From IMG/VR virus record IMGVR_UViG_3300048599_000816, positions 160,545-194,595 of that record: a stretch of 34,051 bases of DNA; one strand, given 5' to 3'. Positions 1 through 18,110 of this stretch are shown here, one piece after another. The notes under the pieces were generated by a model, which saw only the letters and a list, made by a program, of their open reading frames with translations, searched no databases and had not been told where the DNA came from. The DNA is from a virus. Position numbers and translations under genes: made by a program. The first letter of the stretch is position 1. Each line of letters opens with the position of its first letter.

Positions 1-1385
1 TTTTTTACAGATTCAATAAGGTTTTCAATAGAAATTAAAATATCACAATCGCAAAACACAAAAACATCATATTTTGCTTTTAATGCTGCAATATTCATTC
101 CCCAAGACTTATTAAAGTCACCAGAATTTCCAAGAAAAAAATAACGAATTGGGAACGTTACATCTTTAAGAGTAGGATGTTCACCTTGTTCTGTAACTAT
201 TATTTCAAATCCGTGTTGTTTTACAAAAGAAGAGTAATAACTAAGTGTTGCTAAAATTGCTTGTTTTCTATCTGGGTGTGATTCTTTATACGGTATTATT
301 AGTGAAAATTTATATTCAGTTTTTTGATTTTTTATTTGTTGTTCTCCACCCCAAATAGAATATTTCATAATATTACAACCACAAAAAGAAAAATCTTTTA
401 AAGATCTTAAGTTTTGATATTCTTCATTGTTCCAAATATCTTTTATAAAATCTTTTTCAACAGTAAAAAAGCCTATATGTTTTTTGCCTTGGCAACAAGT
501 TACAACTTCTCCATCAGTTTTTATAACCGTTTGTATCCAAGGATAAGAACACAACTTATTTTCGACATCTGGGTTTGATTCTTCACAGTAAAACTCAAAA
601 TACTTATCAACAGGCAGTGAGAAATCATGCCAATTACTAGTTTTTTTTAATTTCTTACCACCAACATGTGATGGAGTAGAGATACGCATTTTAAGTTCAT
701 CAGCCAACTTTACTGCATCATCAAAATTTTGAGCATCTTCTGCTGTCAAACTTGTTTCTTCATTACCATCAATACAACCCAACATAATTTCTTTGATGTC
801 TAAGTTATTAGACCATTCAATTACTTGTCGTAAAAAATTAACATTATTTTTACCCACAACAACAGCAACACGAAGATGAAATTTATCTTGATTTATTTGT
901 TTTTGGATTGATTTTAAGAAGTTTATGTTTTCAACGATTTGCTCAACATTAGTACCTTTTCTCATACTTGATGTTAAACCATCAAAAGAAACATTTACCC
1001 AAGAACCAACTTCTACAATTTTTCTTAAAAGTTCTTTGTTGATTTTATAACTAAGATTCGAAAAAAACTTTATTGTGAAATGATATTTAGAACAAACATC
1101 AAGCATCTCAGCAAAATTTTCGTAAAGGGTTGGTTCACCACGTAAAAACAAATTTATTTCACTTAAATACTCAAACAATTGTTTTTCTAGAGCATAAAAG
1201 ATTTTCATGTCTAAAGGTTTAATGTTTCTTTTATCTTGTGAATAACAATATGAACAACATAGATTACAAGACACAGTAGGCTCTATATATAGCTTTAAAG
1301 GATATGAATTTAAAACAACTTTTCTTTGTTCACATTCTTTAAGATTTAGTAAAGCATTATTATAAGCTTTTTCTGAAACTTTCAT
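1..1385 (-). CDS. Radical SAM enzyme with a SPASM-type auxiliary Fe-S domain fused to a GT2-like glycosyltransferase domain. Partial: the C-terminus runs off the window start.
   Basis: The minus-strand ATG at 1385-1383 overlaps the stop of the upstream 175-aa gene in an ATGA arrangement. The frame stays open to coordinate 1, giving at least 461 aa. The N-terminus has CNLCCSYC, which fits the CxxxCxxC radical-SAM triad, and a RGEP glycine-rich motif. Further along, CSYPW...DGEVVTCC...IGF...DIWN...FCGC matches the SPASM Cys pattern. The last roughly 130 aa have SLIIPYKES and DCD motifs typical of the GT2 family. Confidence 0.6.
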   Translation of the reverse strand, partial: MKVSEKAYNNALLNLKECEQRKVVLNSYPLKLYIEPTVSCNLCCSYCYSQDKRNIKPLDMKIFYALEKQLFEYLSEINLFLRGEPTLYENFAEMLDVCSKYHFTIKFFSNLSYKINKELLRKIVEVGSWVNVSFDGLTSSMRKGTNVEQIVENINFLKSIQKQINQDKFHLRVAVVVGKNNVNFLRQVIEWSNNLDIKEIMLGCIDGNEETSLTAEDAQNFDDAVKLADELKMRISTPSHVGGKKLKKTSNWHDFSLPVDKYFEFYCEESNPDVENKLCSYPWIQTVIKTDGEVVTCCQGKKHIGFFTVEKDFIKDIWNNEEYQNLRSLKDFSFCGCNIMKYSIWGGEQQIKNQKTEYKFSLIIPYKESHPDRKQAILATLSYYSSFVKQHGFEIIVTEQGEHPTLKDVTFPIRYFFLGNSGDFNKSWGMNIAALKAKYDVFVFCDCDILISIENLIESVK

Positions 1386-1909
1386 GATTCTTCTTTTGTT
1401 ACAACATCTAAAGAGAATTTTCTGATAGAAGCACTTGCAAACTTTATTAACAAATTATATGATGTTCTTAATTGATCATCATTCATTTCATTAAAAAGTT
1501 TTGAAAGATCACGCTCAATAGTACTTAACATAACACGAACTTCATCAGGATCTAAATAAAGAATTCCTGCAAGAACTATTTTTATGTCGTCAAATTTATT
1601 TTCAGTAACTAGTTTTTTGAAATATTCAAAAGAAAGTTTTCTTTTTTTATCTTGATAATTTAAAATTATTCTTTTGCTTATTTTTCGAACAATGTAACCA
1701 TCCCATGAACCTAACAAATTACTATAACTTTGAATTGCTTCTAAACAAAATCTAAAGGCTTCTAATTCATTATCTGTTTCAATCAATAAACCATTATTGT
1801 CTACAAAATTTGCATTGCGAAACTGTGCACGAGCTATGTTTAAGAGAACTTTAGTCTCTTTCTTAGGTAAACAATGCCACCCTTCGAATTCGAGCTTTAA
1901 TTTGTGCAT
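1382..1909 (-). CDS. Hypothetical protein (175 aa), translationally coupled to the downstream radical-SAM gene.
   Basis: ORF track. Its stop codon (TGA) overlaps the ATG of the radical-SAM gene (ATGA). I recognised no motif. Confidence 0.5.
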   Translation of the reverse strand: MHKLKLEFEGWHCLPKKETKVLLNIARAQFRNANFVDNNGLLIETDNELEAFRFCLEAIQSYSNLLGSWDGYIVRKISKRIILNYQDKKRKLSFEYFKKLVTENKFDDIKIVLAGILYLDPDEVRVMLSTIERDLSKLFNEMNDDQLRTSYNLLIKFASASIRKFSLDVVTKEES

Positions 1910-1950
1910 TTATCTTCATTTCGTTTAATCTCTTTATATATTAATTTATA

Positions 1951-1989
1951 GAGCAAGAATAAGTTAGATTTTATGAATTATTCTTGCTC
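1951..1989. other. Perfect 12-bp inverted repeat (gagcaagaataa / ttattcttgctc) with a 15-nt loop, overlapping the stop codon of the 185-aa gene.
   Basis: Read directly from the sequence. The repeat is followed on the plus strand by tttttgttgttg, so the U-run sits on the plus-strand transcript only. Confidence 0.4.
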
Positions 1990-2535
1990 TTTTTGTTGTT
2001 GAATTGCACAATCAATAATTCTTCCCCATAGTTCACGATCATCATGAACTCTATTATACAACAATTGTATTATTTCAGGTTTTGTCATACCCCAACTTAA
2101 CAATTCTTTAACTTGCTCTAATCTAGATTGTTTTTCGCCAGAATCGTCCCAGTATTTTTTGTAATCAATTTCAAAATCACCATCAGGTTGCTTTTTTAAA
2201 TATTGAACATGAGGAAACACATCAGCTATATTTTGAAAAATGTGCATTGTCTCATGTGTTACTGTAGATTTTGCATCCTCTAAATACTCAATGACATCAT
2301 CTTTTGTTTTAATGTTGTTTTTAGTAAAATCTTTTAAAGGAAGAAAAATCATTTTTTTTTCATGATTTGAAGCACCACGTTCTTCTTGATCTCTAAATTT
2401 AATCCGTATTTTGTCTAAAACATCAGTTAAATCTTTTTTACTTGTCGTCGGATAGATTTCTTTCAATCTATCTAAGATGTATTTTCTTTTTTTAGGTATA
2501 TCTTTAAAAGTATAAGTATCAGTTTTAATGCTCAT
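1978..2535 (-). CDS. Hypothetical protein (185 aa) with an HExxH motif (THETMH), possibly a small zinc metallopeptidase.
   Basis: ORF track. The HETMH motif is in the middle of the protein, with another His 10 residues downstream. Peptidase function is inferred only. Confidence 0.45.
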   Translation of the reverse strand: MSIKTDTYTFKDIPKKRKYILDRLKEIYPTTSKKDLTDVLDKIRIKFRDQEERGASNHEKKMIFLPLKDFTKNNIKTKDDVIEYLEDAKSTVTHETMHIFQNIADVFPHVQYLKKQPDGDFEIDYKKYWDDSGEKQSRLEQVKELLSWGMTKPEIIQLLYNRVHDDRELWGRIIDCAIQQQKEQE

Positions 2536-3100
2536 TTGTTTGCTCTTTTTTTAACTTTTTAATTGTCTCTTGCATTTCTTGAATAATCAAGTTCTGATGA
2601 GACAGTTTTTGTTGCATTTCGCTGACTACAGAAGAATTGTGTCTCATAACTTTATCTAAATCACGTTGCAACTTCTCTACCATCTGATTCTCAACGTTTT
2701 TTACTATGTTGTTTAATTCATCTTTGTCATTAATCAACACGTATTTGCCTTGATCATCAGATTTTTTAGTAAGAAGACTGACTCTACTATTAAAATCTTT
2801 TTCGAACAAATTACTTAACTCTTGTTCTTCAGCTTTATTGAGCGCAATTATGTTACGCAATTTACCGCACAAAAACGACTCTGTACCTTGAAACTGTCTA
2901 TCAATGTACTCTCTGTCAGGCATTAAAGCAACTTCTTGCAAAGTCGGTCCCCCAACACAACCTTTAAAAAAATCTGGACAATGTGTACAAGGGACCGGCT
3001 TTAATAAACCCAACAAAAATATAGCTTCATTTTTGTCTATATAAGAAATTGAGAAGTCATTTGCTTCTATAGAATCTCCATCGAATTGTTTTACAAGCAT
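2525..3100 (-). CDS. Hypothetical protein (191 aa) with a Cys cluster CTHC-x6-C and a C-terminal coiled-coil.
   Basis: ORF track. It overlaps both neighbours by a few nt, which suggests coupling. Confidence 0.45.
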   Translation of the reverse strand: MLVKQFDGDSIEANDFSISYIDKNEAIFLLGLLKPVPCTHCPDFFKGCVGGPTLQEVALMPDREYIDRQFQGTESFLCGKLRNIIALNKAEEQELSNLFEKDFNSRVSLLTKKSDDQGKYVLINDKDELNNIVKNVENQMVEKLQRDLDKVMRHNSSVVSEMQQKLSHQNLIIQEMQETIKKLKKEQTNEH

Positions 3101-4761
3101 TATTTTTTCCCAAGCACATCATCAATTATTTTCGAATCACTTTGATTGTCAAAAATATCAACATTATAGCTATTTGCACTTATAAAACTTTCTTGTGTTT
3201 CTACAGTTTCAGTTCTATCTTTAGAAGCTTTTTTACCAATATTTTTCTTTTCTTCATCTAAAGCAGCTTGAATTCCAAGAGCAAACTTAGAAACAAGTTC
3301 TAAATTGCAATCGCTTTTCAATTGACTTGCAAATACGTCAATATGTGTTTTAGGAACAAAAGTTGCAGCTTTTTCAAAAACTCTTTTTGCAGCTCTTGGT
3401 GAGCGAACTAAAGGATTGTTTGAAATTAACAATGCAACCTTCGTGCATGTGCCACAATTGTGTAAACTACAACCAACACATTTTGAATTTGCTTTCAAAC
3501 TATAAATCAACTTGCTTCCTGCATGTTGAAGTTTTGAAAAAGCATCAGCCATTTCATCACAATTTGAATATATGTTTGAATCAATAAACAAATAACCAAG
3601 TTGACCATAATGTTTTTGAAGTTTGTACTCATGCTCAGCTAAAAACAAATTAGTTGCTTCAAGACCAAAATGTTTTTTAAGCGAACTTTTAACAAATTCA
3701 AGATCATTTCCTGATGTCATCAAAGCAAAAGCATAATTTGTCATTGCTTTTGAATCTATTGATACAGGTTTTGCTTTAGGTTCTATCTCTACACCTTGTA
3801 AAGTTGAACTTGCAAAATTTGTATCAAAAGTTTGACGATTACTAAAACGTTCAAACTTTGTCAATTCATCTTTGTATTTTTCAGAAAAATCTTGAAATTT
3901 ATCATAACCAAAAGTTCTTGCAAGTTTCTTACCAATTTCTGACCTAGAAAGCTTTGAATTAATTCCAAGCTTATATTCATTAAACATTCTTGCAAGTATA
4001 TTTTGCTTTTCTGTAGAAGAATTCTTTTTTGCATTGTTATCAACATCACGAACAGTCAGTTCTTTGTCATCTGTATCTCTTTGAAATGCAACTCTAGCTT
4101 CTTTATTCTCGTAATAACTTTGTTTGATTTTATCTAGTGAGAATAAAAATTTAGAAGTTACAAACACAGGACGTTTTTGCTCTAACAAACTTTTGTATTC
4201 TTTGACAATAGAACTAGTGACATATTCAAGTTTTGAAAATTTATCAAGAATATCATTAACTGTTGAACGTCGAACTTTAAAATCAACTTTTGATTGTTCT
4301 ACAAGATTTGCATTTTTTTCTTCAAGACTTTCAAAACCAAGAAAAGCATATTTGTCTAGAACTAAACGAATCTTTGATTCAAAGTATTTGAATACGAGCT
4401 CTTTATCGAACTTAGAAAGAAGAGCAGATTGAATTTGTTCAAAACTGTTCTGTTCACGAATCATTGCTTCAACAGCTCTATCTACAGTCTTTATTGCAAC
4501 ATCTTGGGCAACACGTTGAGATTTTTCTTCTGTGAATCTGTTTTGTCTATTTGATTCTCTAGACCCGTCAGAAGTCAGTTCGTTTGCTCTAGATAAACCC
4601 GAATCCTTGTCAAAAGGGATATTAGGTACTTCTAGTTTAGGAGGCTCGTAATTAATCTCCTGTTCAGCGAGCTTTTCAATATAATCAGGCATTGTTTTAC
4701 GACTAGACTCTTGTAGTATACCTGAAAAACCTTGATCAAAAACACCATTTAACTCATCCAT
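3100..4761 (-). CDS. Hypothetical protein (553 aa) with a CVGCSLHNCGTC (C-x2-C-x4-C-x2-C) metal-binding-like cluster near the C-terminus.
   Basis: Long ORF. AAAAGGAGAAAAAATG Shine-Dalgarno upstream of the start at 4761. Confidence 0.55.
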   Translation of the reverse strand: MDELNGVFDQGFSGILQESSRKTMPDYIEKLAEQEINYEPPKLEVPNIPFDKDSGLSRANELTSDGSRESNRQNRFTEEKSQRVAQDVAIKTVDRAVEAMIREQNSFEQIQSALLSKFDKELVFKYFESKIRLVLDKYAFLGFESLEEKNANLVEQSKVDFKVRRSTVNDILDKFSKLEYVTSSIVKEYKSLLEQKRPVFVTSKFLFSLDKIKQSYYENKEARVAFQRDTDDKELTVRDVDNNAKKNSSTEKQNILARMFNEYKLGINSKLSRSEIGKKLARTFGYDKFQDFSEKYKDELTKFERFSNRQTFDTNFASSTLQGVEIEPKAKPVSIDSKAMTNYAFALMTSGNDLEFVKSSLKKHFGLEATNLFLAEHEYKLQKHYGQLGYLFIDSNIYSNCDEMADAFSKLQHAGSKLIYSLKANSKCVGCSLHNCGTCTKVALLISNNPLVRSPRAAKRVFEKAATFVPKTHIDVFASQLKSDCNLELVSKFALGIQAALDEEKKNIGKKASKDRTETVETQESFISANSYNVDIFDNQSDSKIIDDVLGKK

Positions 4762-4810
4762 TTTTTCTCCTTTTGCTTCTCCTCTTATTACAAGAGTAGT
4801 TATTGAAGCA

Positions 4811-5092
4811 TTAATATTTCGTATCTAACACTTTTTTCATTTTGAAATAAGCTTCAATTCCACTTTCGAAATTTTTAAGTTCATCAAGACTAGTAGCTTT
4901 ATGTGTATCATCAAAACCCGATAACCAATTTCTAAAACCATTTTTTTTGGTAATTTCTTGGATTTTCTTGATCAGAGTTTCTAATTCATTTAGATCATTG
5001 TCTAAATTTTCATTATCGTATTGATCAGCAGAAGACTTATTATGTTGTGTTTTTAAAACTCTACACATAGAACAAGTACAATTTTTCAACAT
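4811..5092 (-). CDS. Hypothetical small protein (93 aa) with an N-terminal CTCSMC motif.
   Basis: ORF track, tight spacing with neighbours. Confidence 0.35.
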   Translation of the reverse strand: MLKNCTCSMCRVLKTQHNKSSADQYDNENLDNDLNELETLIKKIQEITKKNGFRNWLSGFDDTHKATSLDELKNFESGIEAYFKMKKVLDTKY

Positions 5093-5124
5093 TTACTCTC
5101 TCCTTAGTTTGCACTCTACAATAT

Positions 5125-6105
5125 TTATTTAGCTTTGCCTATCTCGTTAAGCAGTTCATCATAAGCTTGAAGACTGTTTAACAAATCATTACTAGCTACA
5201 GAACATTGTGTGTTATAATTTTCGTCTGTAAGCTTCATGTAATTTTTCCATTTTGTCGTACTGATAATATTCTTAATTTTTCCGACAAGATCTCCGACTT
5301 TATCAAGTTCGCTCGTGAAATCAACAGAATCTTCGAAGTTTTCAGCAGCTGCTTCTTTTGAGTCTTCATCGTCTTTTTTCTTACAAGGACAATCTGGATT
5401 GGGTCCTGTACCATCAGGCACACCAGGTTCAACACCTGCACTTTTAACTAACTTCACTTCATAGTCACCATATTGATATGTAGTATCATTTACTTTTTTT
5501 CCAGGTCGTTTTTTAATTTCTTCTAAAATCTCAGCTTTAGTTCCTGCTTCACCTGACATTTCAAAAAACGTTGCAACAGCATCGTCAAAAGATTCACCTT
5601 CTACAACACCACCATCTCCTGGTGTTTCACCCATAATATCATACTGTTGTTTTTTTGCTGCTCTTTTATCAGAAATACCATCTTCATTTTCTTTGAAAAG
5701 TCTCATGACATGTTTCTTATCTTCTGATATTTTCCAAAAATCGCCAGTTTCAAGATCTTCATAAACATCACGACCAGCAACTTTAAAAATCCCAGCTTGT
5801 CTATAAGACATTGCTGTCATAATGCTCATCTTTTGCATATCGTTTCTTTGAGCAACAAGAATCCCAAAAAAATCTTCAACAACAGATTCGGGATTTAGGT
5901 CGATTTTTGCTCTTTCTTTAAACGAACTCAATGTACTTTTTGAAACATCAGGACTTTTGTCAAAAGCTCTCAAAGCTTTTTCAACATCTTGTGCAGTCAA
6001 AATAGCTTCTTTACCATCAGGTAACATAGAAGCAGCTGTTTTTACAATACCTCTTTTTGAAACAGAAATATTTTCAAGAAAGGTTGATTCTGTATCTCTT
6101 TTCAT
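5125..6105 (-). CDS. Hypothetical protein (326 aa), acidic, with a Gly/Pro-rich segment.
   Basis: ORF track. No recognisable motif. Confidence 0.5.
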   Translation of the reverse strand: MKRDTESTFLENISVSKRGIVKTAASMLPDGKEAILTAQDVEKALRAFDKSPDVSKSTLSSFKERAKIDLNPESVVEDFFGILVAQRNDMQKMSIMTAMSYRQAGIFKVAGRDVYEDLETGDFWKISEDKKHVMRLFKENEDGISDKRAAKKQQYDIMGETPGDGGVVEGESFDDAVATFFEMSGEAGTKAEILEEIKKRPGKKVNDTTYQYGDYEVKLVKSAGVEPGVPDGTGPNPDCPCKKKDDEDSKEAAAENFEDSVDFTSELDKVGDLVGKIKNIISTTKWKNYMKLTDENYNTQCSVASNDLLNSLQAYDELLNEIGKAK

Positions 6106-6114
6106 ATTTTCTCC

Positions 6115-6393
6115 TTATACAACAAGTAGTTTTTTCTTTATTTGTTTAAGTCTCAACACAAGACTCTTAAAATCATCTTTTGATTCAAGAATACTTGGAC
6201 TTTTTTTACCACTTAAATCTTCAGTAGCTAAATCTACTTCAGCAGATAGACTATTTAGTTTTTCACTCAAAGATGCAGCAAGCTCTAAAGCAGCATCAAT
6301 TTGATCTTGAGGAACTGAAGTAACCACATCAACTGTATCTGATACAGGAGTTTCTTTCTGAAGAATTTCTTTTGCAATCTTTTTAACATCCAT
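6115..6393 (-). CDS. Hypothetical protein (92 aa).
   Basis: ORF track. Adjacent stop/start with the 63-aa ORF. Confidence 0.35.
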   Translation of the reverse strand: MDVKKIAKEILQKETPVSDTVDVVTSVPQDQIDAALELAASLSEKLNSLSAEVDLATEDLSGKKSPSILESKDDFKSLVLRLKQIKKKLLVV

Positions 6394-6585
6394 TTATTGT
6401 TCATCTCCTGTTTTTTTTCTCAACAATTTTGTGCCTTCAACTTTCCAAACATTATCATCAACTCGACCCTCAAAAGGATCTTTTTTAGGAGAACCTAAAC
6501 TTACTCTCTCAAAATAACTAGCTTTTTTTGTTTGAGGAAGATCAAGAACTTTTTCTAGAACGTTTGATTCATCAAATCTAAGCAT
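6394..6585 (-). CDS. Hypothetical small protein (63 aa).
   Basis: ORF track. 1-nt stop/start overlap with the upstream 224-aa gene. Confidence 0.3.
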   Translation of the reverse strand: MLRFDESNVLEKVLDLPQTKKASYFERVSLGSPKKDPFEGRVDDNVWKVEGTKLLRKKTGDEQ

Positions 6586-7259
6586 TAGAAAGCTCCTTTG
6601 ATCTCATAATCTATTTCAGCAACCCCTTTTTCAACAGAACTAAATTTCACTTGATTCTTAAATATTTCTGGTGTTAGTGCTGCTTTTAAATTTTTAAATT
6701 CGCAAGTTAGATATGCAAAAACTTTCCCAAGAATATCATCTATTTCATTCTGATTCAAAACCACGCGATTTGCTGTTTTAAAAATACTCATGTTTTGTTT
6801 AAAATCAACAATCAAAGTTCCCGACATAATATTACTTTTTTTATCGTAATTATATTTTGACCAATCTTCAGAAACTTCTAATTTAGCAAATCTATCAAAT
6901 GAAGCTTTCTTCTCTGTTGTTTCATCTTGTTTTTCCATCTCTTGCTCAACAACATTTGGCTCTTCACTTTTGGGTTGATCTTTTTTCTTTACAGTCAATT
7001 CATCGTTAACTTCTAACTGGTCAATTTCATCAGCAAGAAATTTTAAACTATTGTTAAGTGATTCGCCATAAGTACGAAGTGCATCAGGTGCAGCTAAAAG
7101 AACACCTTTACTGACTTCTTTTCTTCGAACAAGATCTAAAACGTCTTCAAGTACTGTGTTGTCTGCATAACCTTTTGTAACAGCATTGATGACAGCATGA
7201 ACAAAGCTTTTGTTCTCTGATTCTGTCAGTACATTAGTTCTTTCAGCAATTTTGTCCAT
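6585..7259 (-). CDS. Hypothetical protein (224 aa).
   Basis: ORF track. AAGAGGT Shine-Dalgarno 5 nt upstream of the ATG at 7259. Confidence 0.5.
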   Translation of the reverse strand: MDKIAERTNVLTESENKSFVHAVINAVTKGYADNTVLEDVLDLVRRKEVSKGVLLAAPDALRTYGESLNNSLKFLADEIDQLEVNDELTVKKKDQPKSEEPNVVEQEMEKQDETTEKKASFDRFAKLEVSEDWSKYNYDKKSNIMSGTLIVDFKQNMSIFKTANRVVLNQNEIDDILGKVFAYLTCEFKNLKAALTPEIFKNQVKFSSVEKGVAEIDYEIKGAF

Positions 7260-7335
7260 ATTGACCTCTTTTGAATTTTAATACAATAGTTACTAGTTTT
7301 ATAGTTCAATGGCAAGATAAAAACTATAGAAAAAT

Positions 7336-8040
7336 TTAGACAGAAATCTCTTTTTGCACAGTTTTCTTTGATTGCGTATGATAGAGAGAGTTGTACTTTT
7401 TGAGGAGAGAGAATACTTTGTAATAAATTGCAGCTTCTCTCGCTAGTGACACACTTGAAGATTTTTTTAAATACTCTAGTCTTTTTAAACCTAACTTAAT
7501 TCTTGACCCTATAGATTCATAAAGCAAATCAGGTTTGCCTTCAGCTTTCCCAATTTTTTTTGCTATTCTTCTCAAATCATGATCTTTAAAATATTCTAAC
7601 ATTGCAATTTTTTGTTTTTTAGTCACATGTACATCAAGAAAATCTTCCATTTTTGTAATATCAATATTTCTAAAAAAACAAAGCAAGTTTATACGTTTTA
7701 GTGCACGTTTCTTATAATAACATACCATTTCTTGAGATACTTTTAAAATTCTACCCACAACTTCTTGTTTCTTTTTATAGAAAAACAATAAAAGTATCAC
7801 ATATTTTTCTATTTCTGGTAGCATGTGCTCTATAACATAATTTACTTCATTGATTTTCTCTTCATTCTCGAGCTCAATTTGAACGTCTTCAGAAGTATAG
7901 AGACTGTCACTATTTGAAAAAAACAACTCTAAAAGATTATTGTCAATTCTGACTTCACGTTTATATGCACTGATATCTCCACTTGGATCAAAGTGTCTTA
8001 TAATACTTGACTTACTTAATTTTGGGAGATAATCATCCAT
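7336..8040 (-). CDS. Sigma-factor-like protein (234 aa) with a region-4-type helix-turn-helix (VSQEMVCYYKKRALKRI).
   Basis: The motif resembles sigma-70 region 4 (lg.s.erVrqie.rAl.kL). The rest of the protein is not recognisably sigma region 2. Confidence 0.4.
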   Translation of the reverse strand: MDDYLPKLSKSSIIRHFDPSGDISAYKREVRIDNNLLELFFSNSDSLYTSEDVQIELENEEKINEVNYVIEHMLPEIEKYVILLLFFYKKKQEVVGRILKVSQEMVCYYKKRALKRINLLCFFRNIDITKMEDFLDVHVTKKQKIAMLEYFKDHDLRRIAKKIGKAEGKPDLLYESIGSRIKLGLKRLEYLKKSSSVSLAREAAIYYKVFSLLKKYNSLYHTQSKKTVQKEISV

Positions 8041-8043
8041 AAA

Positions 8044-8187
8044 CTATTCTTCTTTCGATGTTTTTTCCTTACAAGAGTCACATATCATACGACCATTTAC
8101 TAAACTTGTAGCTGGATTTTTACCACATTCTTCACATAAACCTGAAGCTATTTTAATTGGTTGTGGTGTACCTTGTTTGTGAAACAT
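8044..8187 (-). CDS. Small zinc-ribbon protein (47 aa): MFHKQGTPQPIKIASGLCEECGKNPATSLVNGRMICDSCKEKTSKEE. Not in the ORF track.
   Basis: Hand-translated from the minus strand. TAAGGAGTTTTTTATG Shine-Dalgarno upstream. Two CxxC pairs (CEEC ... CDSC). Fills the gap between the ligase-like gene and the sigma-like gene. Confidence 0.5.
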   Translation of the reverse strand: MFHKQGTPQPIKIASGLCEECGKNPATSLVNGRMICDSCKEKTSKEE

Positions 8188-8197
8188 AAAAAACTCC

Positions 8198-9100
8198 TTA
8201 GAAATAAATACAGTCTTCTAGCTTTTTATCTTCTCGTATCTTTATATATCTTGCTTCTTGATATTTATCATCTTTACTATCTTTTTCTGACGCTAACATT
8301 TCGAAAACTTTTCCTACTAAAATTTCTTTATTATTGTACAATATTGTTCTTGTATCATACCCATGTACTGGTACATTCATTATTTTTGTAAGAACATTAT
8401 TTCGTAACTGACCACCTTCTAAAGCAACGATCATCTTTTTCAATTTTGGATCATCGCTCTCTACAAGTCCCATTACAGTCATAAAATAAGTTTGAGGAAT
8501 TTTATAAATTCTCCAAGCTGTACTTTGTTTAAAACTATATTTCGCAGCAAGGTCTTTAAAAACAAAAACCTTTATTTCGTTTCTTAATTGTTCAAAAACA
8601 CTTTTTTTATTTTTGCAAAAACCTGCTTGAATTTTGACTGTTTCATCTTCTTTAAATAATTTATTAAGTATAGTACGTCGATCAAATAAAGGCAAGTTAA
8701 AAACATCTTGTCCTGCACTATATATTATGTCAGTCACGTAAAACTGTGCACTTTTAGCAAGATCATCATCTATCTCACCGAGCTTAAGAAATCTAAAAGC
8801 TTTTGACCTGTCATTCTCAAATGTCAAGTAACCTTCAAACAAAGTTTGTTCAGGTAAATTATTTGCTTTTAATGAATTTACAATGTTTGTCAGACTATCG
8901 ATTTTAAATTGTTCTTTATAGTTTTTTTGCTTTCCATGAAATTTAATTTGACCAGAAGCACATACAAGACCTTGATAGCGAACACCTAAACGTATAGGTT
9001 CCATTATCCATTGGTCTGAATACCAAAACTTGTCTTGGTCACTCTCGTTATCAATAGAACCAACACTCCTTGCTTCCATTAGATTCACAAACTCAACCAT
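8198..9100 (-). CDS. ATP-dependent DNA-ligase-like nucleotidyltransferase (about 300 aa) with an apparently degenerate motif I.
   Basis: WIMEPIRLGVRYQG aligns to ligase motif I (T7-type AEIKYDGVRG) but with K to I and D to L. TLFEGYLTF resembles motif III, YVTDIIYS motif IIIa, PLFDRRTIL the R-rich segment, and FVFKDLAAKYSFKQSTAWRIYKI motifs IV-V. I place the start at the ATG at 9100 (MVEF...). That ATG has a GGAGA Shine-Dalgarno and overlaps the stop of the 118-aa gene (ATGGTTGA). The ORF-track start at 9181 has no Shine-Dalgarno. Confidence 0.5.
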   Translation of the reverse strand: MVEFVNLMEARSVGSIDNESDQDKFWYSDQWIMEPIRLGVRYQGLVCASGQIKFHGKQKNYKEQFKIDSLTNIVNSLKANNLPEQTLFEGYLTFENDRSKAFRFLKLGEIDDDLAKSAQFYVTDIIYSAGQDVFNLPLFDRRTILNKLFKEDETVKIQAGFCKNKKSVFEQLRNEIKVFVFKDLAAKYSFKQSTAWRIYKIPQTYFMTVMGLVESDDPKLKKMIVALEGGQLRNNVLTKIMNVPVHGYDTRTILYNNKEILVGKVFEMLASEKDSKDDKYQEARYIKIREDKKLEDCIYF

Positions 9101-9449
9101 TACAATCTCCAAAAACAAATTGAAATCTAGAAATCTTTCTTTTAAAAACATCTTTAAAAACAAATTTATTCTCATTTGCATAAAAACAAATCATATTAGG
9201 TTTGTCTTTAAAAAACATATATGCTCTACCTGTGTGCAATGCTCCAACACTAGAACATTTTTGTAATAATTGCGTCACTTGGCATTCTATAGATTGCATT
9301 GCAATATTATTTATACAAGAAGTTAAATGATTATTATAGATATGCACAATTTGATTTGAAAAATCAGGTACTATAGAAGTGTCAATACACATACTTTCAT
9401 CAAATTCTATTTGCAAATTATCTTCAAATTTGACAACTCTTGCACGCAT
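9093..9449 (-). CDS. Hypothetical protein (118 aa).
   Basis: ORF track. Its start overlaps the NYN gene stop (TAATG) and its stop overlaps the ligase-like start. Confidence 0.4.
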   Translation of the reverse strand: MRARVVKFEDNLQIEFDESMCIDTSIVPDFSNQIVHIYNNHLTSCINNIAMQSIECQVTQLLQKCSSVGALHTGRAYMFFKDKPNMICFYANENKFVFKDVFKRKISRFQFVFGDCNG

Positions 9450-10057
9450 TATTTCTTTCCATCAAACATGAAAGATTCATCAATTTCAAAAAATTTTGAA
9501 GCAACATTTTTCAACTCTTGTGAAGTAACATTCTTATTAGCAGAAAAAGAATATACTTCTACTTGAATATTTTGCAACTTTAAATACTCTACTAATGCTA
9601 CAAAATCACCATCACCCGAGACTAAAACAACAGTGTCAAGAGCATCTTTCTTAGTGATGATATCTATTGCCATTTCAATATCTAAATTGCCTTTTGCTGA
9701 CCCATCACTTCTTTTTTTCAAATCTTTTGAAACTATATTGTAACCAATCTGTTTTAAAAAACTAACAAAACTTGTATTATCATTATCTCCTTTTACAAGA
9801 TAAGCATTTGAAACACAAAGTTTTCTACCTTTAGTAATGCATTCAGTAAGTTTCTTAAAATCTATTTTTTTCTTAAAATTATCCATTGCACCATAATAGA
9901 CATTTTGAACATCAACAAAAATCCCAACTCTTTCGTCAGGTGTGTTTCTGTTCTCTACTCTTACTTGAAACAAAAAATCCCCTTTAAGGGAATCAACAGC
10001 TTCAAGTAGTTTTTTATAGTTCTGTATTTTACTTTCTTTCATTTTTTCCCTTATCAT
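9449..10057 (-). CDS. NYN (LabA-like) domain protein, a putative RNase (202 aa).
   Basis: VGIFVDVQNVYYG ... VLVSGDGDFVALVEYL ... G..V: this is the conserved Asp pattern of the NYN/PIN-like fold. Confidence 0.6.
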   Translation of the reverse strand: MIREKMKESKIQNYKKLLEAVDSLKGDFLFQVRVENRNTPDERVGIFVDVQNVYYGAMDNFKKKIDFKKLTECITKGRKLCVSNAYLVKGDNDNTSFVSFLKQIGYNIVSKDLKKRSDGSAKGNLDIEMAIDIITKKDALDTVVLVSGDGDFVALVEYLKLQNIQVEVYSFSANKNVTSQELKNVASKFFEIDESFMFDGKK

Positions 10058-10061
10058 ATTG

Positions 10062-12338
10062 TCATTCTACAGTTACCAAACTTCCTTCTTCTGTCTTATT
10101 AACAATAATTTCATTTCCATTAATCAAATCTTTTAAAGATTCAATATGAGTAATGACAAATACTTGTTTATAGATTTTTGATATTTCTCTAATGACTTCA
10201 CCAAATTGTAAAATTCCACGAGCATCAAGTTTAGCAATCTTTTCATCAATTATAAGAGCTTCATGCTTCTTTCCTGCTCTTAATGATAAAAGCTTTGCTA
10301 ATGATAAAACAATACTGAAAACTATACGGACAGTTTCACCACCTGAGTACATTTGCAAATCTTTTGGTTCTTTACCTTCTTCTAAAACCAAAATGTCAAG
10401 TCCACCACCTTTTTTAAACTCACCATCTTGTTTTTTAGGGTCTAGATCAAACTTTATTTTTGTTTTTTCAGAATCTTCATTAAATATTTTTAAAAACTCT
10501 GTTGTATATTTTTCAAGCATTGGTATAGATTCTTTTATAATAGATTTTTGAATTCCATCTTTACCAAATATAGTTGAAAGAATTTGATACAACTTTTTTT
10601 GTTTCATGTTTTCTTCATTGATTTTTGCAAAATGAGCTATATCAGTTTTCATTTTTTCAAATTCATCAATTTTGTTTTTTGTCTCACCAATCTCTTGATT
10701 AACATCATCTATTTCGCTTCTATCTGTCTTAATTTCATCTTCAAGTTTTTCTATTGCAAGATTTATTGCTTTAAATGCTTGTTGAATTTTAGGGTCGATT
10801 TTTTGTTCGAGCTCAATAATATTGTCTTTTTTAGATTTAATTGTTATTTTAAGCTCTTCAATTTGTTTTGTTAAATCTATTTGTTCTTCTTCAGAAGTTT
10901 TCAAATACTCTTCAAAATCTTTTTCTTTTTCTTTAAATGTATTTTCATTGTTAATAATTGTTTGCAAAGAAAGTTTCGCTCTAGAAAGCTTATCATTTTC
11001 TTTCTGCCTAGAAAAAGCTTGTATTTCAAGTTTTCTCTGTTCTTTTTTTACAACATCTAATGAAAGTATTGCTTCGTTAAGAGTTTTATTTAGACTTTCA
11101 ATTTTTCCTTGAATCAAATCTAGTTCATTTTGTTTTGAATCTTTAAACTCGTTCTTGAATTTTTCATCGAGAATTTTACACTCTATTTCAATAATTGGAC
11201 AAATCTTCCCAAATTTTTCAAGTTTTGTCAATGTTGTTTTTATAGCATTCAATTCAGTTTTTAAAACAGCAATATCTTTTTCAATAATTTTTATTTCGTC
11301 GTCATGACTTTTGCAAACACCACTTAATTCTTTTATTTGTTTATCTACAACATCAAGTTCTTCAAGAATCTTTTCTTGATCTTTAATTGTTCGTTCTATT
11401 TGAAGTCTTTCTTCTTTTGAATCTTCAATAGATTGTTTACGTCTCTTATAAAGCTCAGTTTGCGATTTTACTTCTTCAATAGAAGACAAAATATCGCTTT
11501 GAGCGTCTTTGTATGCTCTCTCCAAACTTGTCAGGTCTCTATTGCCCTGAACAATTTGGGTTTTTATTAAATTTTCTGTCTCTATTAAAACATTAATTCG
11601 TTGCTTTTCTTCATTTTGTTGTTTTAACTCAATTTCTTTAGACTTCAATTCGCGTTTTGCTTTTTTCAAAACGCTTTCTAAAGTCTTGAAATTTTGTTTC
11701 ACTTGTTCTTCTTGTTCTAGTTGTTTTTGCTTATCTTGAATAAGATTTATATAGACTTGTATTTTTTTATCTAAATCATCAAATTTCTTACTGCATGCTC
11801 TTGCTGCTTTTTCATATAACTCAATATTAAGCAGTTCTCTAAGGATCTCTTTTCTCTCTGAACTTGTTCCTGTAATAATTTGAAGAGATTCACGTTCGTT
11901 CAAATAAGTTGTTGAACTATATGTTTTTGCGCTCAAACCAAGTATTTCTTCGATTGTTTTATCAGTTTTTTTCCAAGTAGCATCTTTCATCTCATTACTT
12001 GTTGTATCTAAAAAAATTTCATAAAGAGCAGAAGAATTTCTTGTTTTTGATCGAATCGATTTAAAACGTTGACCATCGATTTTAAATATGACTTCAAGAT
12101 ACATCTTTGTCATACTGTCATTTATATAGCTATCTAGCAAATCAGCTCTTCCTGAGCCTTTTCCAAAAAAATTCACAACTATTGCTTCAAAAAGACTAGA
12201 CTTTCCAGCACCATTCGACAATTCTGCGTCATCATTAATTCTACCAAGAACAAGACAAGCTTGAACATCAGACAAATCAATTTCTTGGCGTTTCCTATAA
12301 CTTAAAAAACCTTCAAGTATAATCTTCTCAAGTAACAT
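10062..12338 (-). CDS. sbcC: SbcC/Rad50-like ATPase (758 aa) with a long central coiled-coil.
   Basis: N-terminal Walker A (SNGAGKSSLFEAI). C-terminal signature SGGE followed by Walker B (ALIIDE). The middle is K/E-rich and heptad-like. Confidence 0.85.
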   Translation of the reverse strand: MLLEKIILEGFLSYRKRQEIDLSDVQACLVLGRINDDAELSNGAGKSSLFEAIVVNFFGKGSGRADLLDSYINDSMTKMYLEVIFKIDGQRFKSIRSKTRNSSALYEIFLDTTSNEMKDATWKKTDKTIEEILGLSAKTYSSTTYLNERESLQIITGTSSERKEILRELLNIELYEKAARACSKKFDDLDKKIQVYINLIQDKQKQLEQEEQVKQNFKTLESVLKKAKRELKSKEIELKQQNEEKQRINVLIETENLIKTQIVQGNRDLTSLERAYKDAQSDILSSIEEVKSQTELYKRRKQSIEDSKEERLQIERTIKDQEKILEELDVVDKQIKELSGVCKSHDDEIKIIEKDIAVLKTELNAIKTTLTKLEKFGKICPIIEIECKILDEKFKNEFKDSKQNELDLIQGKIESLNKTLNEAILSLDVVKKEQRKLEIQAFSRQKENDKLSRAKLSLQTIINNENTFKEKEKDFEEYLKTSEEEQIDLTKQIEELKITIKSKKDNIIELEQKIDPKIQQAFKAINLAIEKLEDEIKTDRSEIDDVNQEIGETKNKIDEFEKMKTDIAHFAKINEENMKQKKLYQILSTIFGKDGIQKSIIKESIPMLEKYTTEFLKIFNEDSEKTKIKFDLDPKKQDGEFKKGGGLDILVLEEGKEPKDLQMYSGGETVRIVFSIVLSLAKLLSLRAGKKHEALIIDEKIAKLDARGILQFGEVIREISKIYKQVFVITHIESLKDLINGNEIIVNKTEEGSLVTVE

Positions 12339-12357
12339 AAAAATCCTTGTGTAAGTT

Positions 12358-12396
12358 CTTGTTGTTCCTATAGATTTATACTATAAGAACAACAAG
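12358..12396 (-). promoter_or_regulatory. 16-bp stem-loop immediately upstream of the sbcC ribosome-binding site.
   Basis: cttgttgttcCtatag-atttata-ctatAagaacaacaag. On the minus-strand transcript the single mismatch becomes a G-U wobble. On the plus strand it is a C/A mismatch. Lies between the 103-aa gene stop and AAGGATTTTTATG of sbcC. Confidence 0.45.
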
Positions 12397-12406
12397 ATTG
12401 AACAAA

Positions 12407-12718
12407 TTATTTATTCTGCTTTAACTCAGTAACAATTTCTAAAATTTTGTCTAATTGTTTTTGCATATCACAAAGAACAGGTTCTATTTTTTTCATAAGC
12501 AATTCAGACTGTGTAACTATTGGTTTACAAATTTCAGATTTTCTTTGCAAATTTTGCTTATCTAGATCTTGCAAATTTTCAATAAAACCTAATGTTTGTT
12601 TGTTCATTTCGCCAGCAATTTTTTTAGCGTTTTGTAAAAAATCTGCATTAACTGTGTTGATTTTCAATAAAGCTTCTTGTATCTTGTTTTTATCTATCTC
12701 TCTGTTTTCTTTATTCAT
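12407..12718 (-). CDS. Hypothetical coiled-coil protein (103 aa).
   Basis: ORF track. K/E/Q-rich heptad-like composition. Confidence 0.45.
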   Translation of the reverse strand: MNKENREIDKNKIQEALLKINTVNADFLQNAKKIAGEMNKQTLGFIENLQDLDKQNLQRKSEICKPIVTQSELLMKKIEPVLCDMQKQLDKILEIVTELKQNK

Positions 12719-12732
12719 ACGTGACTCCTAGT

Positions 12733-14922
12733 TTAATAGCCTACTTTTTCTTCGCCAAGTTCAAAAACACATTTGATACCATCAACAACAAGTTCGCAAT
12801 TCTCTCTGCTTGTGAATTCTTTAAACCATTTGCGACCAAGTATGACAGCCATTTTTGTTTTTTGAATATTTGAACGAAGTGATCTCAACTTTTTCTGTTT
12901 CTCTCCAATAGTTTTTTCAAACCATGAAGCAATTTCAGCTTTATCTTTGAGTGTTGCTTTTGCGTTTTCCCACAATGTGATTCCTGTTTCAATCAATGCT
13001 TCTGAAGCTGTTCTTGATTTATTTGAAGCAATCTTTTCCATGACTTTTTTGACAGTGGGCAATGTAGCAATACCTGACAATTTAATATCAAAAGTTTTAG
13101 CCATGTAAAAATCTACAGGGTCAGCTTTATCTGTTGGTGGAGAATAAACTCCTCCTCGTTCAACAAGAATACCATTCTCTTTTAAGAACAAAGCTTGTTC
13201 CTCAGTAAAATTTGATGGTACTTCTTGCTCATCACCAAGAACATCTGACTTTAACCACTTAAGAGCTTTAATCTCACCCTTAAGCTTCTGTTCAGCAAGA
13301 ACATTTTTGCAAAGTTCTTCACCTGAAATATCATCACCAGCAAGAACTCTATTGATTGCAGGAAGTTTTCCAAGATCTATTGCATAAACTTTTGATGTTT
13401 TAAAATCATCATCAACAACAATGCCTTCGTTCTTGAATTTCTTGTATGACTCTTGTGAAGAAGTAAGATAGAACACTTTTGTATGGGTATGACCATCTTT
13501 TACGAAAGTATAGTTTCTAAAAACGTAAGTCGGATATTTGTCAATAAAACCCATTTGAGCTGCAGTTTTACCATTTGCTTCATGAAGGTCTATTGTACCT
13601 TTTATTGAAGTTTGAACTGACAAATTAAGACGACTTTCATGCCATACTAAAGTATTAAATGGACACTTACTTGTTTTATCTGCATAAAACTTGCTGTATC
13701 CGTCTTTTTCAGATGATTTTACACCAATTTTCTCATACGCAAACTTTTCGTGATACGGGAAAAAAGCACTTTCAGAATCTTCTGTTAACATATTTAATGC
13801 ATCATACACGCAAAAAGCGTCAGCTTTGGGAAGATAAGTTGCATCACGTCCACATGTGAATCTTGAACTTACATCATTTACAGACTTGCTTATAAATTCT
13901 TCAGTTTCTCCAAACTCTTCAACCATAAAAGCGTTATTAAGCTTGTCAATGATAGCTTTATCCCCAGCTTTTCCAACAATCTCCATAGCAATATCAGTTT
14001 TAGTTTGTTGACTCATTATCAATGCAGCACCATAAATTGCTTTTGCTAATGAATCTTGATTTGACCCAAAATCTACTTTCAAGAGATCAACTTTGTCCCA
14101 AGACTTTGTGTTTGGTTTCTCTGTTGTAAGATAATAGATTTTTACAGGCTTTCCTTTTTCTGGTGCAACATAAATTTTGTCATCATCAAGAGAAAGCGAA
14201 ACAACACCCTGATCAGTAACAGAAAAAATTGCTAAAGTATTTGAAAATAAAGGTTCGACTTCTTCTTTAGGTTCGCTTGAACTTGACATATCAACAAGTT
14301 TTACAATGTGATTTGTAAATTCTTTGACATTTGAACTGTGAATCAACATAGCACCAAGTTTTTCAGACATTTGCGCCATCAACTCTTTGTTGTAATAACA
14401 ACCACAACCTATCAACATTGCTGTATGAATTTTACCTTTGATTTTTTTGATAGAAGCAAAAATTGTATCTACTTCTTTTTTGTAGTTGCTAACAACAGGA
14501 TAACCATCAGTAAAAAGACAAAGCGAAAAGGTTTTTGATAAAACAGACAAATCGTTTACGACAACATCAGTATCAGTGAGAATTTCACTAAAACATGTAG
14601 TGCCTCTTGTTGTGTTGTTCTTTTTAATTGCAGCTTCAAGCGATTTATAATCAGCATTGTCAACAATTCTAAATCCTTTAAAAACCCAATTAAAATCACC
14701 TTCGCTGCTAAACCAGCCCAATGACAAAGAATCTCCTTTTGGGATCTTCTTTGATAACGTGATAAGTTGATCACAAAGTTCAGTAATCAACCCGTACATT
14801 GAACCTGATCTATCATAGATCCAAATATGATTTACAGGTTCTTTTTTTGCAACAATCTTTTTTGATTTTATTTCTTGTTCAACCAAAACAAGATCATTGT
14901 CAAATTTGACATACTTTGGCAT
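12733..14922 (-). CDS. Large von Willebrand factor A (vWA) domain protein with an intact MIDAS motif (729 aa).
   Basis: N-terminal IWIYDRSGSM (DxSxS), then TTRGTT (Thr), then LCLFTDGYP (TDG) make a complete metal-ion-dependent adhesion site. The remaining roughly 500 aa are unrecognised. Confidence 0.6.
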   Translation of the reverse strand: MPKYVKFDNDLVLVEQEIKSKKIVAKKEPVNHIWIYDRSGSMYGLITELCDQLITLSKKIPKGDSLSLGWFSSEGDFNWVFKGFRIVDNADYKSLEAAIKKNNTTRGTTCFSEILTDTDVVVNDLSVLSKTFSLCLFTDGYPVVSNYKKEVDTIFASIKKIKGKIHTAMLIGCGCYYNKELMAQMSEKLGAMLIHSSNVKEFTNHIVKLVDMSSSSEPKEEVEPLFSNTLAIFSVTDQGVVSLSLDDDKIYVAPEKGKPVKIYYLTTEKPNTKSWDKVDLLKVDFGSNQDSLAKAIYGAALIMSQQTKTDIAMEIVGKAGDKAIIDKLNNAFMVEEFGETEEFISKSVNDVSSRFTCGRDATYLPKADAFCVYDALNMLTEDSESAFFPYHEKFAYEKIGVKSSEKDGYSKFYADKTSKCPFNTLVWHESRLNLSVQTSIKGTIDLHEANGKTAAQMGFIDKYPTYVFRNYTFVKDGHTHTKVFYLTSSQESYKKFKNEGIVVDDDFKTSKVYAIDLGKLPAINRVLAGDDISGEELCKNVLAEQKLKGEIKALKWLKSDVLGDEQEVPSNFTEEQALFLKENGILVERGGVYSPPTDKADPVDFYMAKTFDIKLSGIATLPTVKKVMEKIASNKSRTASEALIETGITLWENAKATLKDKAEIASWFEKTIGEKQKKLRSLRSNIQKTKMAVILGRKWFKEFTSRENCELVVDGIKCVFELGEEKVGY

Positions 14923-18038: not shown

Positions 18039-18051
18039 TTATCACCCCGTA

Positions 18052-18090: not shown

Positions 18091-18110
18091 ATAAATTAGC
18101 AGAAGTTCAC

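Follow-up and report, generated by a model that had tools for sequence, protein, structure and literature searches.

The window analysed here—a 34,051-nt stretch of a virus record in IMG/VR—carries a T4-like replication module, and at the end of its replication/recombination genes lies a gene in which two enzyme types are joined. Genes nearby encode SbcCD, ligase, UvsX, SSB, helicases, and primase. The minus-strand frame is open from an ATG at position 1385 to the window edge, and its 461 codons translate without interruption. The features of this region are given below, with the evidence for each in brackets.

1 to 1385, minus strand: 5' part of the fusion gene, codons 1-461 of 611 (translation, Pfam, identity to the full-length product P0041)
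1 to 311, minus strand: N-terminal 103 residues of a GT-A glycosyltransferase domain, beta4GalT/chondroitin-polymerase-like (FNKSWGMNI, DxD)
312 to 350, minus strand: linker of about 13 residues, EQQIKNQKTEYK, between the two enzymes (alignment, comparison with sister phage L012, low pLDDT)
351 to 572, minus strand: predicted twitch-type auxiliary Fe-S domain, residues about 272-345 (Pfam SPASM, Cys conservation, partial N_Twi_rSAM match)
636 to 1304, minus strand: radical-SAM core, residues about 28-250 (CX3CX2C and GEP motifs)
1382 to 1909, minus strand: 175-aa gene with an ATGA overlap with the fusion start (ORF call; no family found)
1950 to 1990, minus strand: intercistronic RNA hairpin with a 13-bp stem and a 15-nt loop (repeat search, fold)
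1978 to 2535, minus strand: 185-aa gene with HETMH at residues 94-98 (ORF call; no family found)
2525 to 3100, minus strand: 191-aa gene with C38, C41, C48, and C78 and a coiled-coil-like C-terminal half (no family found)

A covalent radical-SAM/auxiliary-cluster/glycosyltransferase fusion exists in this phage. An earlier note, made from the letters alone, had read the truncated edge gene as a radical-SAM core joined to a glycosyltransferase (GT) domain and had asked for the rest of it; Pfam, the motifs, and the recovered full-length product P0041 all agree with that reading. P0041 is 611 aa long, has a 426,911-bp contig as its recorded source, and is identical to the window translation at 461 of 461 residues; from N- to C-terminus it comprises the radical-SAM core, the twitch-type auxiliary Fe-S domain, and the GT-A glycosyltransferase. 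The same architecture is found in six contigs from assemblies made independently (sources ENA, JGI, and Logan), and a full-length homologue, P0001, is 92% identical. Against the fusion of the relative L001, dN/dS is 0.06 and 0.08 for the two halves (dS 0.68)—purifying selection is strong, and equally so, on both; values for L016 were set aside because of an offset in the alignment. In a first AF2 model pLDDT is low at residues 346-360, the linker region, and <50 over the GT half because the alignment was shallow; the GT half was solved in a second model built on a 65-sequence alignment.

The earlier note could name no known role for such a fusion, and our searches agree: every NCBIfam match falls far under its cut-off, so that no named family fits, and literature searches on radical SAM/SPASM enzymes with glycosyltransferases in phage, polysaccharide, or fusion settings turned up no such enzyme. 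Megablast of window positions 1-12000 matched none of the GenBank phages, and tblastn of the fusion returned only two weak GT matches, both in uncultured phages of 630-640 kb.

The core carries CNLCCSYC (CX3CX2C) at residues 40-47 (nt 1245-1268) and a GEP SAM-binding motif at residues 82-86 (nt 1128-1142), and matches Pfam Radical_SAM (PF04055) with E 2.4e-10 and 41.3 bits against a cut-off of 29.5. C40, C44, and C47 are invariant across the 26 aligned family sequences, as are C18, C98, and C204. Judged by motif and Pfam score, the domain belongs to the radical SAM superfamily.

The auxiliary domain requires a closer definition. The seven-Cys SPASM motif, which serves two auxiliary clusters, reads CX9-15GX4C-gap-CX2CX5CX3C-gap-C, and the twitch domain is a truncated SPASM with one auxiliary cluster, having CX9-15GX4C around a beta-hairpin and a Cys after helix alpha2' (PMC6231123). 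The phage protein has C279-X12-G-X4-C297-C298 at nt 492-551 and C335-X-C337 at nt 375-386; the 26 family members keep CX12GX4C(C) and, further on, a C-X(1-9)-C pair, and CX2CX5CX3C is absent from all of them. The domain had been called SPASM-type, and the Pfam SPASM model does still match (E 7.8e-9, 36 bits against a cut-off of 21.5), but the seven-Cys motif is missing—a finding that the earlier note had itself named as speaking against its reading. NCBIfam N_Twi_rSAM matches in part. By its Cys pattern the domain is probably of the twitch type, with a single predicted Fe-S cluster.

The earlier note also named, as an outcome that would speak against it, a common sulfatase-maturase paralogue of host origin, which the family's spread discounts: it comprises about 31 clusters and is carried by only 2 of 185,579 GTDB species, and it is compact and highly conserved (46-77% identity). 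No anSME model is among the best 25 of 30 NCBIfam matches, and no sulfatase gene lies at any fetched locus. With no family match, a Cys pattern for one cluster only, and no sulfatase partner, the enzyme is probably not an anSME. Nor does it have an N-terminal RRE domain, since the cluster motif begins already at residue 40 and only one helix (residues 5-19) precedes it; sequence matches to SkfB and SuiB leave the RRE regions of both uncovered. An IMG/VR pattern scan with the radical-SAM alignment found no relatives.

In the GT half, FNKSWGMNI spans nt 90-116, and DCD, inside nt 39-53, is the DxD motif; SLIIPYKES is also present in this C-terminal part, and a WGVEDD motif falls beyond the window edge, in the full-length protein. 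Pfam GT2 reaches only E 0.033 on the truncated product; the full-length P0001 matches GT2 at the curated cut-off (23.3 bits) and Glyco_transf_7C as well (23.3 bits against 23), which backs the GT2 hallmarks, SLIIPYKES and DCD, that the earlier note had picked out. A GT profile compared with PDB gave beta4GalT1 (2.8e-14), K4CP (3.1e-12), and beta4GalT7 (2.2e-10). The nearest folds are those of glycan polymerases and beta4GalT enzymes. The domain has a GT-A (Rossmann-like) fold with a DxD metal/nucleotide-sugar site, and FNKSWGMNIG, DCD, and WGVEDD together with the closest similarity suggest that it falls in the beta4GalT-like (GT7/Glyco_transf_7C) subgroup. A glycocin S-glycosyltransferase of the SunS/ThuS type was rejected as a candidate; the closest similarity lies elsewhere, and SunS ranks 59th.

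SPASM/twitch radical-SAM enzymes are routinely read as flags for peptide natural products, and the earlier note had put its emphasis on a peptide or protein maturase. Acting like a sactisynthase or an anSME, the radical-SAM half would then cross-link, epimerise, or oxidise either a ribosomal peptide or a protein of phage or host; the GT would glycosylate the same product, and the outcome would be a RiPP that carries a sugar, or a virion or toxin protein in modified form. We consider this unlikely, given the beta4GalT- and chondroitin-polymerase-like GT and the carbohydrate contexts described below. Compared with the SkfB, SuiB, and anSME maturases, the phage enzyme has no RRE, no sulfatase gene nearby, and no evident precursor gene, and it is missing the seven-Cys motif present in SuiB and anSME; no precursor-like ORF (Cys/Ser/Thr-rich or leader-like) was seen by eye in window positions 1-6000, in L001 at 11800-14100, or in L009.

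Relatives of the phage carry the two enzymes in other forms. In the sister phage L012 the radical SAM and the GT are two separate genes overlapping by 26 nt, with a stop codon and the overlap at the position of the fusion's linker; the fusion is derived from two adjacent overlapping genes. By BLAST, none of the other L012 genes matches the window or its relatives. Two near-identical phages, L005 and L016, keep the GT and are missing the radical-SAM part, so the radical step is dispensable or the coupling may be looser than the fusion suggests. Radical SAM and glycosyltransferase together make up the unit that is conserved.

This unit does not extend to the small genes upstream, which had been proposed to form a four-gene modification cassette with the fusion. 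The 175-aa gene is coupled to the fusion through ATGA, as had been noted (overlap at 1382-1385), and it stays syntenic with the GT whether the radical-SAM part is present or absent. All three small genes are 94-100% conserved in L005 and L016, where the locus has the GT alone, and they are not next to the radical-SAM/GT pair of L012; because they are kept in relatives without the radical-SAM part, they are not radical-SAM partners. The HExxH motif reported for the 185-aa protein is there as HETMH—one occurrence in 10,877 window codons, with 0.21 expected by chance—but no peptidase family was matched in Pfam, NCBIfam, PHROGs, or PDB sequences. An IMG/VR pattern scan with this protein found no relatives, and its candidacy as a metalloprotease was rejected for want of family or PDB support and of divergent homologues for a conservation check. 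The 191-aa protein, described as Cys-rich, is not, since its four Cys amount to 2.1% against a background of 1.3%.

The earlier note had also placed a perfect 12-bp repeat at 1951-1989 and taken it to close off the region. The repeat is perfect, with arms of 13 nt at 1950-1962 and 1978-1990 around the 15-nt loop, but it sits between the 185-aa and 175-aa genes and therefore lies inside the proposed cassette rather than at its end. The hairpin overlaps the stop codon of the 185-aa gene; its coding-strand RNA folds at a dG of -15.6 kcal/mol (z -6.8), and it is conserved in L001, L003, L005, and L016, where C-to-U changes retain G.U pairs on the coding strand. It was rejected as an intrinsic terminator (no T-run, no terminator called), as was a T4-type late promoter (TATAAATA) after it, the motif not being enriched in the window (6 against 3.4 expected).

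Gene context is an indirect form of evidence, and huge phages hold many unrelated neighbours; read in that light, the surroundings of the radical-SAM family are consistent, with carbohydrate genes in every fetched context. Radical SAM and GT lie within a few kb of each other in nearly all of the other fetched loci. A small GT-A is directly upstream of the family radical SAM in L022, and one is found 4-8 kb downstream, with GT8 and GH5, in L006, L011, and L026; those of L006 and L011 match the fusion GT at profile level only, with no BLASTP similarity. On bacterial-type contigs there are four triads (two in L009, one each in L019 and L027) of a family radical SAM, a GT2 synthase resembling PgaC/CelA/NodC, and one further radical SAM; these GT2 partners give weak matches to HpnI, MftF, and the arsenosugar GT, far below NCBIfam cut-offs. 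In a Spirochaetales MAG the family lies beside a DHQ-synthase-like sugar-phosphate cyclase, a BtrH_N-like protein, ACP, dehydrogenases, GT1, and GH10, a layout that resembles an aminocyclitol pathway. The linkage of radical SAM and GT recurs in independent arrangements; the metagenome scan yielded only 7 loci, below the number needed for a statistical neighbourhood test. Among the phages, L001 and L016 have a genuine GalE, which scores 293.6 bits where the cut-off is 262.3, and a small GNAT 7.4 kb downstream. Three membrane proteins come after the GT.

It may be asked whether the fusion has any mechanistic meaning, or whether a frameshift in the 26-nt overlap joined neighbours with unrelated jobs. 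The separate overlapping genes of L012, the lone GT of L005 and L016, and the short, poorly modelled linker would fit such an accident; we nonetheless find it rather improbable, as the linkage occurs in several unrelated arrangements and lineages, both halves are under equally strong purifying selection, and the adjacent pair of L012 sits in a different genomic context. Least probable is DNA hypermodification, in which the GT would glycosylate a modified phage base (compare the T4 and base-J glucosyltransferases) and the radical SAM would further alter sugar or base, shielding the genome from host nucleases: radical-SAM enzymes participate in known phage base modifications, the gene stands at the end of a replication/recombination module, and the L012 pair is 4-9 kb from UDG-like and (weakly) ThyX-like genes, but neither the 34-kb window nor the next 10 kb yielded a gene for a base-hydroxymethylase, TET/JBP, DpdA, or a kinase, the bacterial members occur in polysaccharide-synthase and cyclitol contexts rather than DNA contexts, and the GT has glycan polymerases and beta4GalT as nearest folds and three membrane proteins after it.

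The reading we prefer, at roughly even odds, is that the fusion serves a huge, uncultivated phage as a bifunctional enzyme for carbohydrate tailoring. Because the relatives sit among sugar-handling genes, the building of an unusual modified sugar is most likely, over peptide cross-linking; the earlier note had offered sugar or DNA hypermodification as an alternative, and it is the sugar version that the evidence favours. The C-terminal domain would be an inverting, DxD/metal-dependent GT-A of the beta-1,4-galactosyltransferase/chondroitin-polymerase type, moving a hexose or N-acetylhexosamine from a UDP-sugar donor. Since the phage has its own GalE, UDP-Gal or UDP-GalNAc would be the most likely donor, a link that is circumstantial. 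The N-terminal domain would act as a radical-SAM enzyme of the twitch type that has a single auxiliary Fe-S cluster and cleaves SAM to a 5'-deoxyadenosyl radical, which abstracts an H atom from a sugar C-H, either on the donor before transfer or on the sugar after it. The sugar radical might then be oxidised via the auxiliary cluster, a dehydrogenation of the kind carried out by BtrN or DesII, or it might regain an H atom from a conserved Cys, which would amount to epimerisation. The fusion would couple the radical and transfer steps, and the sugar might be passed to a glycan or lipid of the host envelope, to a virion protein, or to DNA.

Several known systems offer parallels to such a carbohydrate-tailoring enzyme. 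The closest carbohydrate-acting twitch/SPASM-class enzymes are BtrN (butirosin 2-deoxy-scyllo-inosamine dehydrogenase), BlsE, DesII, SpeY, and AprD4, at only 12-23% identity; in contrast to them, the phage enzyme has an extra conserved CC pair and the invariant C18, C98, and C204, and it is phage-borne and GT-fused, with no aminoglycoside pathway in the phage. The GT shares about 18-20% identity with beta4GalT1 and beta4GalT7 and with the GalNAc-transferase domain of the E. coli K4 chondroitin polymerase, and differs from them as a compact, soluble 250-aa domain of phage origin with no stem or transmembrane segment. Pathways that pair a radical SAM with a GT2 on one product include hopanoid HpnI/HpnJ, mycofactocin MftC/MftF, and arsenosugar ArsS with its GT2; these are separate proteins of other radical-SAM subfamilies, whereas the phage enzyme is fused, and hopanoid, mycofactocin, and arsenic genes are all absent. 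A mycofactocin system was rejected, the MftC model scoring 24.3 bits against a cut-off of 265 and P0030, a stand-alone GT orthologue, having no MftF match in NCBIfam. The locus is also like the phage gtrABC-type modules for O-antigen glucosylation, in that a phage-borne GT2-fold enzyme is followed by small membrane proteins and the module is gained or lost among close relatives.

What makes the family of interest is that it is compact, has carbohydrate contexts throughout the fetched loci, and in one phage lineage is fused to a beta4GalT-like transferase. We tentatively suggest that it may be an unrecognised class of glycan-tailoring radical enzymes partnered with glycosyltransferases—with processive polysaccharide synthases in spirochaete-like bacteria and, in huge phages, placing a sugar altered by radical chemistry (epimerised, oxidised, deoxygenated, or C-C-linked) on the infected cell's envelope, the virion, or phage DNA, as an optional layer that near-identical phages gain and lose, for instance to exclude superinfecting phages or to evade defences. 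Fused, split, and radical-SAM-deleted forms all occur naturally and lend themselves to direct comparison. If the sugar reading is true, the single 611-aa polypeptide would allow both activities to be studied in vitro, and the fusion would be a 'Rosetta-stone' link for annotating the unexplained bacterial radical-SAM/GT2-synthase triads; radical sugar tailoring, known mainly from antibiotic pathways, would then also occur in phage-directed glycosylation.

The gene at the window edge runs on the minus strand from an ATG at 1385 to the edge as one uninterrupted frame of 461 codons, in whose translation residues 40-47 read CNLCCSYC. Pfam places Radical_SAM (E 2.4e-10) and SPASM (E 7.8e-9) in this part, with a weak GT2 match (E 0.033) in the truncated C-terminal part. 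The full-length product, of which the earlier note had only a part, was recovered—this 611-aa protein, P0041, matches the window product at 461/461 residues and is on record in a contig of 426,911 bp. Six contigs of ENA, JGI, and Logan origin carry a 92%-identical full-length homologue, P0001, in unchanged gene order; hence the fusion of radical-SAM and glycosyltransferase (GT) parts is not an assembly or sequencing artefact. P0001 reaches the curated Pfam cut-offs for both GT2 and Glyco_transf_7C, which bears out the GT hallmarks read earlier at the C-terminus. Compared with L001, a related locus, the window gives dN/dS values of 0.06 (radical-SAM part) and 0.08 (GT part) at a dS of about 0.68, so both halves are functional.

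The remainder of the window is a T4-like replication/recombination module with all genes on one strand, encoding SbcC/SbcD, a UvsX-like recombinase, SSB, helicases, primase, a DnaB-like helicase, and RuvC, along with a 5'-3' exonuclease, a PD-(D/E)XK nuclease, and a GIY-YIG/NUMOD3 endonuclease. The GC content is 31%, the window holds no tRNAs, and window 1-12000 has no DNA-level match among GenBank phages; the module, this lack of a match, and the 427-kb contig together indicate an uncultivated huge phage. The GIY-YIG/NUMOD3 homing-endonuclease gene (16577-17410, minus strand) is flanked within the module by the RuvC gene and a 151-aa gene without assigned function, and a 234-aa protein at 7336-8040 (minus strand) weakly matches sigma-70 region 4. 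Outside the window, L001 encodes a 485-aa flotillin/Band-7 protein preceded by a weakly NfeD-like one (17079-19121).

Stand-alone orthologues of the GT half (P0030, P0031, P0032, and P0033) are 258-266 aa long. An exhaustive HMMER search returned 1,022 GT relatives at E <=0.001; among the best 150, none carries a CX3CX2C motif and none matches the radical-SAM profile. The consensus of 65 sequences contains FN(R/K)SW..N(V/I)G, DxD, and WGGEDD, and the best PDB matches of the profile are beta-1,4-galactosyltransferase 1 (2.8e-14), K4 chondroitin polymerase (3.1e-12), and beta4GalT7. From these motifs and matches, the GT half is predicted to be an inverting GT-A enzyme of the beta4Gal(NAc)T type.

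About 31 clusters, all scoring at least 380 bits, make up the compact family of the radical-SAM half. Identity to the fusion ranges from 46 to 77% among members, most of which are stand-alone proteins of ~367 aa; the next-best proteins fall to 119 bits. The family occurs in only 2 of 185,579 GTDB species (one Brevinematales and one Spirochaetales MAG), and no NCBIfam model comes near its cut-off for this half (best 71 bits vs 380). Cysteines C18, C40/C44/C47, C98, C204, C279, C297, C335, and C337 are invariant in the family alignment, and C298 is kept in at least 90% of members. The seven-cysteine SPASM pattern, whose absence the earlier note had named as refuting its proposal, is not present: the auxiliary domain shows CX12GX4C(C) and a later cysteine pair, with the CX2CX5CX3C block missing. 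By published definitions of SPASM and twitch motifs (PMC6231123), the domain is twitch-type and predicted to bind one auxiliary cluster.

Fold comparison of the radical-SAM half (comparison protein, value)
SkfB, 21.2
BlsE, 21.2
SuiB, 21.1
anSME, 20.8
PqqE, 19.4
DesII, 19.2
BtrN, 14.4

The fold class is clear, and fold does not tell a peptide from a sugar substrate. By sequence, BtrN is the top PDB match of the family profile (E 1.2e-9). A single helix precedes the cluster motif, so the N-terminus has no space for a RiPP recognition element (RRE). We also noted P0223, a distant metagenomic radical-SAM/SPASM protein of 544 aa (22% identical) that begins with a DUF2064 domain; as that family is GT-A-like and radical-SAM-associated, P0223 is a fusion in reverse order.

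Upstream and co-directional lie genes for 175-, 185-, and 191-aa proteins, as described previously, the first ATGA-coupled to the fusion. Their grouping with the fusion as a four-gene cassette did not hold: all three proteins show 94-100% conservation with or without the radical-SAM part, and no counterparts lie beside the radical-SAM/GT pair of the sister phage L012. None of the three matches any family; HExxH occurs once in the window against 0.21 expected by chance, and the 191-aa protein has four cysteines.

Features around the fusion gene
1950-1962 and 1978-1990: inverted repeat, 13-bp arms, RNA dG -15.6 kcal/mol, z -6.8
3100-4761, minus strand: 553-aa protein without a family match, 98% conserved in L001, in which a CVGCSLHNCGTC cluster (CxxCx5CxxC) falls around residue 415; the 191-aa gene's start codon overlaps its stop
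L001 11839-12920, directly outside the window on the downstream side of the fusion: a trio of small membrane proteins

The inverted repeat was confirmed and is conserved, with C-to-U changes on the coding strand retaining G.U pairs, but it does not close off the region as had been thought. Lying between the 185- and 175-aa genes and having no T-run, it most probably forms an RNA hairpin between cistrons rather than marking a unit boundary. The membrane proteins are common to L001, L005, and L016. The first, of 123 aa, has a coiled coil and two TM helices; the next, of 169 aa, is u-spanin-like, with a LISC lipobox and a TM helix at its C-terminus; the last, of 66 aa, has two TM helices. They may form a lysis-type cassette or serve the GT as membrane partners.

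Related phages show how the fusion varies. L012, at 77% identity, has two separate genes, one for a 356-aa radical-SAM protein and one for the GT, overlapping by 26 nt in different frames; a frame change within such an overlap would give the fusion's 13-residue linker. The corresponding locus of L016-L018 has a GT without the radical-SAM part (order 553-191-185-176-GT-124-169). L005 matches the window at 98.1% DNA identity in its flanks, yet the GT alone is present (L005 1494-2273): it starts MKVSE, the radical-SAM gene's first five codons, and, relative to window 1-1385, lacks residues 6 to ~357, the entire radical-SAM part, in frame. This GT is only 87.4% identical in DNA, and the difference from its flanks places a recombination breakpoint at the junction; L005 has lost the radical-SAM part in frame from a diverged allele. 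The GT-only loci show that the radical-SAM module is optional, added to a GT locus that is itself conserved.

Elsewhere, six huge-phage-type loci (L006, L011, L021, L022, L024, and L026) hold the family radical SAM inside or beside one module of GT8, endoglycoceramidase-like GH5, metallophosphatase, a small GT-A, and a second radical-SAM enzyme. The small GT-A matches the profile of the fusion's GT at 1e-9 to 1e-11 and, in L022, lies directly upstream of the radical-SAM gene. In L006, L011, L021, and L024 a DUF488-N3a gene always directly precedes the radical-SAM gene, itself preceded by periplasmic-binding/ion-channel (glutamate-receptor-like), PspA/IM30, and CesT-like chaperone genes, with GH5 downstream (endoglycoceramidase similarity, E 3e-39). 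Bacterial-type contigs repeat a triad of family radical SAM, PgaC/CelA/NodC-like GT2 synthase, and second radical SAM (two in the Brevinematales contig, L009/L014, and one each in L019 and L027); the Brevinematales contig also holds a 733-aa GT4-radical-SAM fusion. These dense clusters (L009/L014 766-18461, L019, L027) interleave up to eight radical-SAM genes with such synthases and include, at 346 bits, a bona fide N_Twi_rSAM protein; no described pathway known to us matches them. The Spirochaetales contig (L015/L020) carries two family paralogues amid a DHQ-synthase-like cyclase, a BtrH_N/DUF6005 (BtrH_N-like) protein, ACP, dehydrogenases (ADH, SDR), methyltransferases, GT1, and GH10, and looks like an aminocyclitol or pseudo-sugar biosynthesis cluster. 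In the window's own group, L001 and L016 carry, 7.4 kb downstream, genes for a small acetyltransferase and for a true GalE.

We put at about even the chance that the fusion is a bifunctional sugar-tailoring enzyme. This reading is favoured by the recurrent radical-SAM/GT linkage—fusion, overlap, adjacency, and shared module—jointly with the uniformly carbohydrate contexts, the missing RRE, the affinity to BtrN, and the pairing of a beta4GalT-type GT with a phage GalE. Peptide or protein maturation is unlikely; no precursor-like ORF, such as the small one that the earlier note had suggested looking for nearby, was seen in window 1-6000, L001 11800-14100, or L009. Slightly less probable is an incidental fusion of unrelated neighbours, and DNA hypermodification by the fusion is about equally improbable. 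Other explanations take the remaining probability.

Radical-SAM and GT domain classes are both known, as are sugar-acting twitch radical-SAM enzymes from antibiotic pathways; a literature search found no description of such a radical-SAM/glycosyltransferase enzyme. What is new is an uncharacterised, tightly conserved radical-SAM clade linked to glycosyltransferases, together with its occurrence in huge phages and, in one lineage, the covalent joining of such an enzyme to a beta4GalT-like GT.
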